DNA of 64,000 nucleotides, taken from NCBI RefSeq assembly GCF_044324875.1, contig NZ_CP172185.1, one strand, 5' to 3'. Source of the DNA: Escherichia coli. Lineage in GTDB: Bacteria; Pseudomonadota; Gammaproteobacteria; Enterobacterales; Enterobacteriaceae. This document shows positions 238-3,200 of the stretch, piece by piece (within the stretch, counting starts at the first letter, position 1; each line of letters opens with the position of its first letter). Made by a program: the position numbers.

Positions 238-3200
238 GCAAACACATCAATGATGAACGCCACATAGACGACCCCCTCCCATGTGCTGACGTAAGTAAAA
301 TCAGCCACCCACAACTGGTCAGGACGTTCTGCCACAAACTGACGGTTTACGCGGTCGCCTGCGGCAACGGCTTTCCGGCTGACGGTAGTGCGGACCTTTT
401 TACCCCGGAGAACACCGGCAAGTCCCATAACCGCCATGAGGCGCGCCACTGTACATCTGGCTACCCTGATTCCTTCCCGTAACAACTGACGCCAGACTTT
501 ACGCACACCGTATACCTGATGATTCCCATCGTATACGCGCAGTATCTCTTTCTTCAGCCAGTCATCGCGCTGCGCACGGGCACTGCGTTTATAAGGATGA
601 TGTCGCTGTTGCTGACAGTGGTAATACGTTGACGGGGCAATATGTAGTTCACTGCATACCGGTCCGACCCCGTACAGCTTACGCAGCTTATCCAGCAGTG
701 GCATCACTTTTTCCAGAGGCGGTCGAACTCCGCCTTCGCAAAATAAGCGGAAGCCTGGCGAAGGATATCGTTACTGCGGCGCAGTTCACGATTTTCACGT
801 TCCAGCTCTTTCAGACGCTGACGTTCAGCGGTGGTGAGCCCGCCATCACCGCCTCCGGTATCCCGCTCATGCTGGCGTACCCAGACACGCAGAGTCTCCG
901 GTGTACAGCCAATCTTTGGGGCAATGGAACAAATTGCCGCCCACTGTGAGTCATATTCGCCCTGACTTTCCAGAACCATACGAATCGCCCTCTGACGGAC
1001 TTCGGGGGAAAAACGAGTATTTTTAGTCATTCTGTTTACCTCTTTCTCAGGGAGTTTAGTCTCCAGGATTCCCGGGGCGGTTCACGGGAGCCAGGACCTT
1101 AAAATAACTACTTACAGGCTGTTGTATTCCAGCTGGTAATACGATTTCTGCACTGTCAACAAACGGAATGCCGTCTTTAAAGTCTGCCCTGTCATTAGCC
1201 TCATTGAGAATGAAATCGACTAGAACAGGCTCTTCGTTCACCAGTCCTTGATGGTTAAGAAATTTGACGTAAAGTTTAAGTGTATTGCTGACGGGATAAA
1301 TTTTTCCAAGAGCATTGGTAACAACATGGGCTGCGGTGAGAATCTTTTGCTGCTGACCATTATCGAAACCAAACGCAGTTGCTTCGAGATGGCTACTAAA
1401 ATGAGGATCATTGCTTACATAGATTTTACAAACGTAGTTTTCAAACATTATTTCCTCCTTTTGCCGGTACCTAATCAGTTACACGGCTGCATGTTATAAA
1501 CAACTAAACTCGCTTCCTGATATTTGAGTTTGTATGTTTTGCCAGGCACCAGCTCACCTCTGAAACACGGTTAGTCTCCTCCATGACATGGTTATGCGAT
1601 GGTCAGAAACTGTTATCGACGAAAGGCTGGAATTCCTTTAATGGCATTATCCATTTCAAGTCGTATGTCCTGAACGGGAGCGTATATTTTTATGATTCCA
1701 GATCTTAACCCTGAAACATTCCCCGTATCAAAACTGACCCGTTACAGATAAGTCACCACCGGTGCTGTCGATTAATTTAGTGAATTGCATGTCCTCATCC
1801 CATAAAGGGTAGGGCCTACCCCCGGCATCGAGCAAACCTGACCACCCTGCCCTTATTAAGACCCCACATGCGGCAATGGTGCCCTGTCCACGCCGCCCGC
1901 GAACTTTGAGGAAATGGGGAGAAAATAAAAAGAAAACAAAAAGTTATCGGCTGAAGTACCGGCGCAGATAGGGAATCAGGCGAAGCCTGACAGCACGTTA
2001 GGGCCTGGCAGGGGGCTTGAGGGATGAGGACATGCAATTGTGGTAACCTTCCCGCCACGGGGTCGGTTAATTCGTTATTTAGTGTCATATTAAAGTTATG
2101 TCACTAATCACAGAGTTATGTCACTAATCGCGTTTATCATAATAAAGTTATGTCACTATCCTGACTAAAGTTCTGATTTAAAAACACTTTTATAGGCATC
2201 TTCATTTTTTTGTTACCTGTGCAAACAGGTCAAATTCGTATCCTGCTGCTACAATGCCAACGGCCGCGTTACCAGTTCGCCGGGTAGCATGGCCAGCAAA
2301 GCCAGGCATCGAGCACCCGGGTTTCACTGACGGCCGCTGCATAGACGCCGGTATCCGGGAAGAAATAAACCGGGGTGGCGTTGTTCAGCTGGTCGCCTTC
2401 ATCGGCCAGAGCGCCGATCACCTCATGAGGCTTAAGCAGCATATCCGTTAAATATTCATCCGGGTGGATGGCATTCAGCGATATGGCCATCTCCAGAAAT
2501 TCATCCAGGATATGGCGGGTACGATACCCCCGGAAAACCTCGTATGAAGGCGTGACGCATTCACCATCCAGGGAACAGGCATCGTAACCGGCCAGCTGCT
2601 CTTCGGTGAGTCCGGAGGCATGCTTTGCCACAAGATTCGTAAATTGCTCTTTATCGTCCATCACAATCCTTACGCTGTAGGGGCCTGTTTGTGTTATCAC
2701 TGCTTCCGGTTTTTACTTCGCACAACCCGGCAGGTATCCGGTCGCCCGGGCGTCCTTTGCGGTCTTGTTCGCCCTTCGCCTGAATTACGTCAAATCCCTT
2801 TCACTACCCGGCCGCAGGGTGACACCTCCCCTTTTCTCCGGAAGCGAAAGAGGAAGAACAGTTTAACAGCCCGGATCCTCAATAATTTTCGCGTAACGGA
2901 CTAAATAACCGGTTTATGCAGCTTCTGATAACCACAGACCGCGATAGAATAAAACGTCTGGTGAGGAACCGGAGTGTTATGTAAGCGGGGGGTTTAACTG
3001 GGTATCTGTGTAGTCCTATTTAGCCAGATATCCCGAATAAAAACCTCAACGATTAGGTAAACGAAATGGATGGATTCTGGTCGATGTTCTGTTTGTTTGT
3101 CGTGGTAGTTTCACTGTATAAAGCCCTTTCTGTAGCAGCAGCACGAGCAGACGCAGCAAAATTAAATATGCTTCTCAGAATGAGAAAGTTTAAAAAGTAG

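Follow-up and report, generated by a model that had tools for sequence, protein, structure and literature searches.

An IS-truncated trypsin-like protease gene in Escherichia coli and its intact relatives on gammaproteobacterial mobile elements

Truncated protease gene and its junction

The 64,000-nucleotide stretch of the Escherichia coli contig NZ_CP172185.1 (RefSeq assembly GCF_044324875.1) analysed here, referred to throughout as the window, carries near its start an open reading frame (ORF) of 130 amino acids that RefSeq annotates as a 'hypothetical protein'. The initial annotation read this ORF as a cytoplasmic trypsin-like peptidase gene cut short by the insertion sequence (IS) IS629, and comparison with intact copies confirms it: positions 1085-2075 are 99.5% identical in DNA sequence to a segment of plasmid pUTAK-14-1 in which the gene is complete and encodes 218 amino acids. 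The window ORF is a pseudogene in which the first 121 protease codons are fused to 9 IS-derived codons. It is the remnant of a cytoplasmic protease gene of mobile elements, the intact form of which is most likely an autonomous, one-gene cargo module. The coordinates of the features discussed here are collected in Table 1.

The number of surviving native codons had been put at about 120, and 121 are counted before the IS end, TGAACCGCCCCGGGAATCCTGGAGAC, which starts at base 1084 and supplies the residues VNRPGNPGD plus a stop codon. Codon 122 spans the junction at 1083-1085 and only its first base, 1085, is native. The strong ribosome-binding site proposed for the gene is present as AGGAGG, 5 nt ahead of the ATG. 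The catalytic-His-like motif KILTAAHVV also holds up, as its His and the flanking L-T-A-x-H-V-V-T are invariant in a 22-member alignment. There is no sign of a signal peptide, again as first proposed, since N-terminal hydropathy is low (the highest Kyte-Doolittle mean in the first 40 residues is 0.6, over an 11-residue span) and an AlphaFold model assigns residues 5-11 and 20-28 to strands of the first barrel of a chymotrypsin fold.

The His-Asp-Ser catalytic triad with its GxSGG motif is incomplete in the window, where the ORF retains His41 and Asp98 only. Cut after codon 121, the fragment is without Ser177 (in GCSGGP), the oxyanion hole and the second beta-barrel, and because these are lost it cannot be a protease and the gene is dead. 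On its own it scores 14 bits against the Pfam Trypsin model, which is under the threshold. The 64-kb window contains neither the missing 3' part nor the two genes found downstream of the protease on the plasmid, and the ORF deserves a pseudogene flag.

The IS terminal inverted repeat, beginning TGAACCGCCCCGGG, is present and is read at 1060-1084. The IS copy is incomplete; 238-1084 remains and the second end has been replaced by IS100 from 237, while strain PK-F-10122 has a complete IS copy at the identical junction. Equivalent copies are named 'IS3 family' or 'IS1203 family' in RefSeq, and the name IS629 used here rests on the latter label, IS629 and IS1203 being isoforms of the same group in ISfinder. 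As in other IS629/IS1203 insertions with adjacent deletions in E. coli, an IS3-family element adjoins the gene and the distal sequence has been lost; nothing about this insertion is unusual, and the window copy is itself truncated by IS100.

From 1085 to about 19,900 the window is about 99% identical to the tellurite-resistance (ter) region of IncHI2 plasmids, so this part is a plasmid-derived ter block that now lies in a chromosomal mosaic of IS elements, a serine protease autotransporter of Enterobacteriaceae (SPATE) gene and adhesin genes. Several hundred E. coli contigs on record encode the exact 130-amino-acid fusion product, always between ter genes and the IS, with differing DNA past the IS. 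The constant junction with variable DNA beyond it marks an inherited island boundary. Other genomes carry other lesions of the gene. In E. coli ES8 a different IS3-family element has independently disrupted it at about codon 104, with the 3' part and the neighbouring genes kept, and in HCM-27C-1 the same gene has a further 92-bp deletion. In the ES8 chromosome a group II intron (ltrA) adjoins the interrupting element, and strain Br_112_kylling has a 98.5%-identical intron region beside an IS629 copy.

The region directly upstream of the ATG, presumed to hold the promoter and 5' untranslated region, is peculiar to the R478-type protease allele and is swapped along with the gene in plasmids bearing a 54%-identical allele. 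No convincing promoter was called in it by a promoter and terminator scan, and the same scan of the plasmid locus gave background level only. Beyond it lies a conserved block with a 19-nt perfect inverted repeat (AATTGCATGTCCTCATCCC / GGGATGAGGACATGCAATT) around 219 nt. Taken as RNA, 1783-2039 forms a single long hairpin (-114.7 kcal/mol, z -6.2), without a match in Rfam, and it could be a MITE-like element (miniature inverted-repeat transposable element) or a structured RNA. The block is unannotated and 94-95% conserved on about 270 E. coli IncHI2 plasmids, including some without the protease and its two downstream genes. A part in regulating the protease gene was rejected because the element is conserved on these plasmids without the protease. 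The next 152 bp or so (2076-2227) are absent from R478-type plasmids and contain a 22-nt unit, TCATAWTAAAGTTATGTCACTA, directly repeated three times at 2085, 2105 and 2137; this stretch may be a small insertion or a group of sites for protein binding.

Elsewhere in the window, a vWA-TerF-like gene of the ter block encodes only 190 amino acids, compared with 413 in related islands, and has an IS3-family transposase ORF near it, so that it resembles a second IS-truncated gene of the block. A virulence-island mosaic with SPATE, AbgT and YadA-like-anchor genes surrounds the ter block. Two IS21-family copies, with istA-like and istB-like ORFs of identical lengths, and an IS66 transposase gene are also present.

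Table 1. Positions of the features described in the text, in the window and in the other loci compared
Feature	Sequence	Position	Strand	Remarks
Protease-fragment ORF	window	1056..1448	minus	130 aa
Native 5' part of protease gene	window	1085..1448	minus	121 codons + 1 nt
ORF tail from IS end	window	1056..1084	minus	VNRPGNPGD + stop; from comparison with intact sequence
ATG of ORF	window	1446-1448	minus	
Shine-Dalgarno AGGAGG	window	1454-1459	minus	direct reading
KILTAAHVV (ORF residues 35-43)	window	1320-1346	minus	
His41 codon (CAT)	window	1326-1328	minus	
Asp98 codon	window	1155-1157	minus	
Upstream region of R478-type allele	window	1449..1785	minus	presumed promoter + 5' untranslated region
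Inverted-repeat element	window	1783-2039		conserved block ~1785-2075
IS629/IS1203-type IS3-family element	window	238..1084	minus	left inverted repeat ends at 1084; orfB truncated at 238
IS orfA	window	704-1030		
ALIL frameshift pseudoknot (RF01497)	window	633-749		116 bits
End of IS100 (IS21 family)	window	1..237	plus	IstB C-terminus + terminus; annotated istB IS100kyp in matching records
Protease allele, reference for 54% identity	L001	7708-8364		
54%-identical protease allele	L012	8001-8648		
54%-identical protease allele	NZ_CP136602.1	135322-135966		
TerB-less pair	L001	5615-7505		~160-aa glycine-rich membrane protein + ~460-aa BnzB homologue
TerB-less pair	L013-L016	~5420-7390		as above
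Integron cassette array (Ga0436643_001283)	L018	1-11796		holds protease homologue P0145
Interrupted protease gene and group II intron, ES8	L021	5393-10436		
vWA-TerF-like gene and nearby IS3-family transposase ORF	window	5144-5716 and 6379-7269		vWA-TerF-like product 190 aa
IS21-family copies	window	21602-24020 and 55748-58166		
IS66 transposase	window	24106-25242		
SPATE-type autotransporter	window	25745-29620		Peptidase_S6, 1291 aa
AbgT-family transporter	window	29932-31491		
YadA-like-anchor protein	window	59837-61438		

Intact protease and its family

The intact 218-amino-acid product (WP_000462754) is annotated as a 'trypsin-like serine protease' on pUTAK-14-1. It passes the gathering threshold of the Pfam Trypsin family (PF00089; 27.1 vs 20.6 bits) and falls under the cutoff for Trypsin_2 (19.3 vs 27.6 bits). 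In an alignment of 22 homologues of 214-220 amino acids and 51-79% identity, the catalytic His, Asp and Ser and the GCSGGP motif are invariant (His40, Asp97 and Ser176 in the numbering of the alignment, which omits the initiator Met). Structure prediction of the full-length protein, which had been proposed as a check, gave an AlphaFold model with the double beta-barrel chymotrypsin fold, also recognised by fold search. Across the full-length homologue the Kyte-Doolittle maximum is 1.05 over 19 residues, which indicates no membrane segment. The intact protein is thus predicted, from sequence and model, to be a single-domain, cytoplasmic, S1-like serine protease of the PA clan, and the family bears every sequence and fold feature of an active cytoplasmic serine endopeptidase.

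Within this enzyme class the protein has no favoured subgroup. Its fold matches, none above 25% identity, form a flat list over viral proteases and several S1 groups, in which V8/Glu-endopeptidases, the trypsin domains of umbrella toxins and viral proteases score equally high and Deg/DegP/HtrA domains are one part. It shares the fold, the His-Asp-Ser order and GxSGGP with the Deg2, Deg9 and DegS domains, with Rv3671c (MarP) of Mycobacterium tuberculosis and with V8/Glu endopeptidases, but it is at most 25% identical to any solved structure and is a single-domain, cytoplasmic protein borne by mobile elements. By sequence, its matches in the PDB are plasma kallikrein and coagulation factor XI (E ~0.002), and searches of NCBIfam and PHROGs gave no informative match. 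Neither a PDZ domain nor a pro-peptide nor an export signal is present in the 218 residues, and the protein is therefore not of the DegP/HtrA type.

Few proteins belong to the family. When 1.84 billion cluster representatives were searched exhaustively with a profile, only 17 clusters (50% identity) were retrieved at E <=0.001, in which the full-length members are single-domain proteins of 202-250 amino acids and the remainder are fragments; a word-indexed search, with clustering at 90% identity, gave 24 from Enterobacterales and Vibrio. In a scan of 100,044 species-representative genomes the protease alignment recovered no locus; the family is accessory. We infer that it is a very small, uncharacterised family carried by gammaproteobacterial mobile elements.

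A search with the fragment for intact homologues and their neighbourhoods, as had been suggested, leads to plasmids of the R478/pUTAK-14-1 type, where the gene has defence-type surroundings. The protease and the two genes behind it form a three-gene stretch that R478 (NC_005211) carries with 100% identity and about 445 IncHI2-type plasmids, from Enterobacter, Salmonella, Klebsiella, Citrobacter and E. coli, carry with at least 99%. Besides IncHI2 plasmids, the protease occurs in a Yersinia integrative and conjugative element (ICE); in a Vibrio ICE, between a gene for an Mrr-type nuclease and a Gabija-like OLD-TOPRIM/UvrD pair; in a P4-type island of Serratia fonticola, with the PADLOC candidate system PDC-M04A and a protein with an Aga-type restriction endonuclease domain; in a mutS-adjacent island of Proteus; and at chromosomal sites in Citrobacter amalonaticus and Pantoea that have no recognisable defence neighbours. 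GmrSD/HEC-05 is a further defence system near protease loci. There are also two distant members, one of which is a single-gene integron cassette on a metagenome contig. This contig has 16 attC repeats resembling Vibrio cholerae repeats, two of which flank the protease homologue, and its neighbouring single-gene cassettes encode a CBASS-type cyclase, PDC-S63, and HNH, GNAT and DUF4062 proteins.

Linkage to a Bunzi-like gene pair

On the plasmid, the protease gene is followed by a 202-bp spacer and by genes for a 165-amino-acid glycine-rich membrane protein and a 462-amino-acid protein. The larger protein matches the PADLOC model of BnzB (E 6.5e-53), and the smaller one matches positions 301-414 of the 544-position BnzA model (E 1.6e-6). 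Bunzi is a two-gene anti-phage system in which BnzA has TerB, transmembrane helices and a predicted lipid-interacting domain, and its mechanism was reported as unknown (Millman et al. 2022, bioRxiv 10.1101/2022.05.11.491447). The downstream plasmid genes thus correspond to BnzB and to the membrane part of BnzA. A Pfam search found no TerB in the 165-amino-acid protein, which makes the pair a TerB-less relative of Bunzi. It differs from canonical Bunzi in this absence and in the protease gene that precedes it, and the window retains none of it. The early guess that the intact gene belonged to a stress or defence module is supported by this pair on IncHI2 plasmids and by the relatives in defence-rich cargo, in both cases on the basis of neighbourhood.

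The TerB-less pair is widespread in Proteobacteria and appears to be undescribed. Its family is far larger than that of the protease (at least 345 clusters vs 24), and weak tblastn matches of 28% identity extend to plasmids of lactic acid bacteria, including Lactococcus and Lactiplantibacillus. A genome scan with a single BnzB-like query found two loci, and an alignment query would reach further. The AlphaFold model of the BnzB-like protein is of low confidence (pLDDT 60, pTM 0.45), and PDB sequence searches with both pair proteins gave nothing meaningful.

These observations raise the possibility that the protease is a true third component of a Bunzi variant, in which it takes the place of the TerB domain of BnzA and would either sense infection or proteolytically activate the membrane protein or the BnzB-like effector, in the manner of protease-gated bacterial gasdermin systems and modules of trypsin with a metallo-beta-lactamase (MBL). 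Several findings favour such a tie. The Yersinia ICE and the R478-type plasmids have exactly three genes in common here: their shared DNA begins 8 bp ahead of the protease ATG and ends at the stop codon of the BnzB-like gene. Three backgrounds carry the trio, the identity of the protease being 100, 71 and 54%, and in the common E. coli IncHI2 plasmids all three genes are jointly missing at the site beside hipBA. The 165-amino-acid protein is without the TerB part of BnzA, and the activation of immune effectors by trypsin-like proteases has a precedent (bioRxiv 10.1101/2025.09.03.673762).

Against this, the two parties are often found apart. The pair is present without the protease in Aeromonas, Providencia, Thalassospira and Gluconobacter, and the protease without the pair in at least seven contexts, which include the Vibrio ICE, S. 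fonticola, Proteus, C. amalonaticus and Pantoea; it can also be mobilised by itself in an integron cassette. The pair proteins that are linked to the protease have no pro-peptide-like extension compared with those that are not, their lengths being alike with or without it (462 vs 460 and 165 vs 158-170 amino acids). Recombination has also separated the genes. One Citrobacter plasmid matches the R478 type at 99-100% identity in its backbone, membrane gene and BnzB-like gene but at only 54% in the protease; the identity switches about 100 bp past the protease stop codon, within the 202-bp spacer, and the other breakpoint lies at the end of the 290-bp conserved block. NZ_CP136602 has the same arrangement, with the 54%-identical allele in an R478-like backbone. 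By these alignments, IncHI-type Citrobacter plasmids have undergone allelic replacement of the protease gene alone.

A similarity to trypsin-MBL modules (Hachiman, Argonaute and AVAST) and to protease-activated gasdermins remains, in that an intracellular trypsin-like protease lies beside a potential effector in defence loci. In those systems, however, the protease is fused or strictly linked to a sensor and a substrate, whereas the present protease is unfused, co-occurs with its neighbours only facultatively and has neither an MBL nor a gasdermin close by. We consider a third-component role unlikely. The protease is most probably an autonomous module, for which a place beside the Bunzi-like pair is frequent but not required, and their co-location probably reflects a shared defence island rather than an obligatory partnership.

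Possible role

Most loci of the protease lie in defence-rich neighbourhoods, and together with the restriction of the family to mobile elements, the allele replacement and the status as a cassette this makes a role in conflict with phages or other mobile elements the most likely one. The protein would be a sequence-specific intracellular endopeptidase, which might, for example, cleave a host or phage protein on infection. That the intact protease has a defence role of its own is a tentative proposal, for which the chances are close to even. Bolder readings are somewhat unlikely, namely a new protease-gated Bunzi variant, borne by plasmids and ICEs as three genes, with a free protease in place of the TerB sensor switching on a membrane effector, or a single-gene, cassette-sized anti-phage protease.

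A number of points weigh against the protease as an autonomous module of conflict. The co-transfer of three genes between the ICE and IncHI2 plasmids, and their joint presence or absence in IncHI2, favour some functional tie to the pair. No known or candidate defence model of PADLOC 2023 matches the protease, the best being LmuA (E 0.006), and searches of the literature by accession and for IncHI2 with trypsin-like proteases found no description of, or experiment on, any member. The solo loci in C. amalonaticus and Pantoea are without recognised defence neighbours. A search for a conserved small partner ORF, such as an inhibitor or antitoxin, beside the solo protease genes found none, and a partnerless, unregulated cytoplasmic protease poses the problem of how the cell is spared damage.

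The protease might instead be a counter-defence or establishment factor that degrades an immunity or regulatory protein of the recipient after entry of the plasmid or ICE. Its occurrence only on plasmids, ICEs, islands and an integron would fit, as would the swapping of its allele in a backbone that is otherwise identical, a pattern suggestive of an arms race. Yet its genes have no recognised leading-region location, the genes around them are of defence rather than anti-defence type, and the protein has no homology to known anti-defence proteins. We regard this as improbable, and as a lesser alternative to a role in phage or mobile-element conflict by cleavage.

For the window copy, a function of the 130-amino-acid product itself, for example as a decoy or dominant-negative fragment, would account for its persistence, and the intact ribosome-binding site and upstream region and the recurrence of the identical fusion ORF in so many contigs are in its favour. 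This is nevertheless very unlikely, as the junction is the island boundary adjoining the ter genes and descent explains the persistence, a single barrel of a two-barrel fold would probably be unstable, and the gene is truncated differently in ES8 and HCM-27C-1. That the gene encodes an ordinary HtrA/DegP protease of envelope quality control, or that the ORF is a chance one or no protease, can be set aside as scarcely credible, since, although Deg/DegP/HtrA domains are among the top fold matches, the protein totals 218 residues with no signal peptide, anchor or PDZ domain, Trypsin_2 is below its cutoff, other protease folds score equally, the PDB sequence matches are kallikrein and factor XI, and the fragment is 99.5% identical to a conserved gene.

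The copy in the window matters little in itself: it is a dead fragment lying where an IS bounds the tellurite-resistance island of IncHI2 origin. The family to which it belonged is an uncharacterised addition to a very well known kind of enzyme, and its carriers are ICEs, an integron and IncHI2 resistance plasmids of clinical importance, namely R478 and hundreds of mcr-9/blaCTX-M plasmids. Should a defence or counter-defence function be demonstrated, the protease would extend the known repertoire by a compact proteolytic module, and it could also help to show how membrane systems of the Bunzi type are set off.

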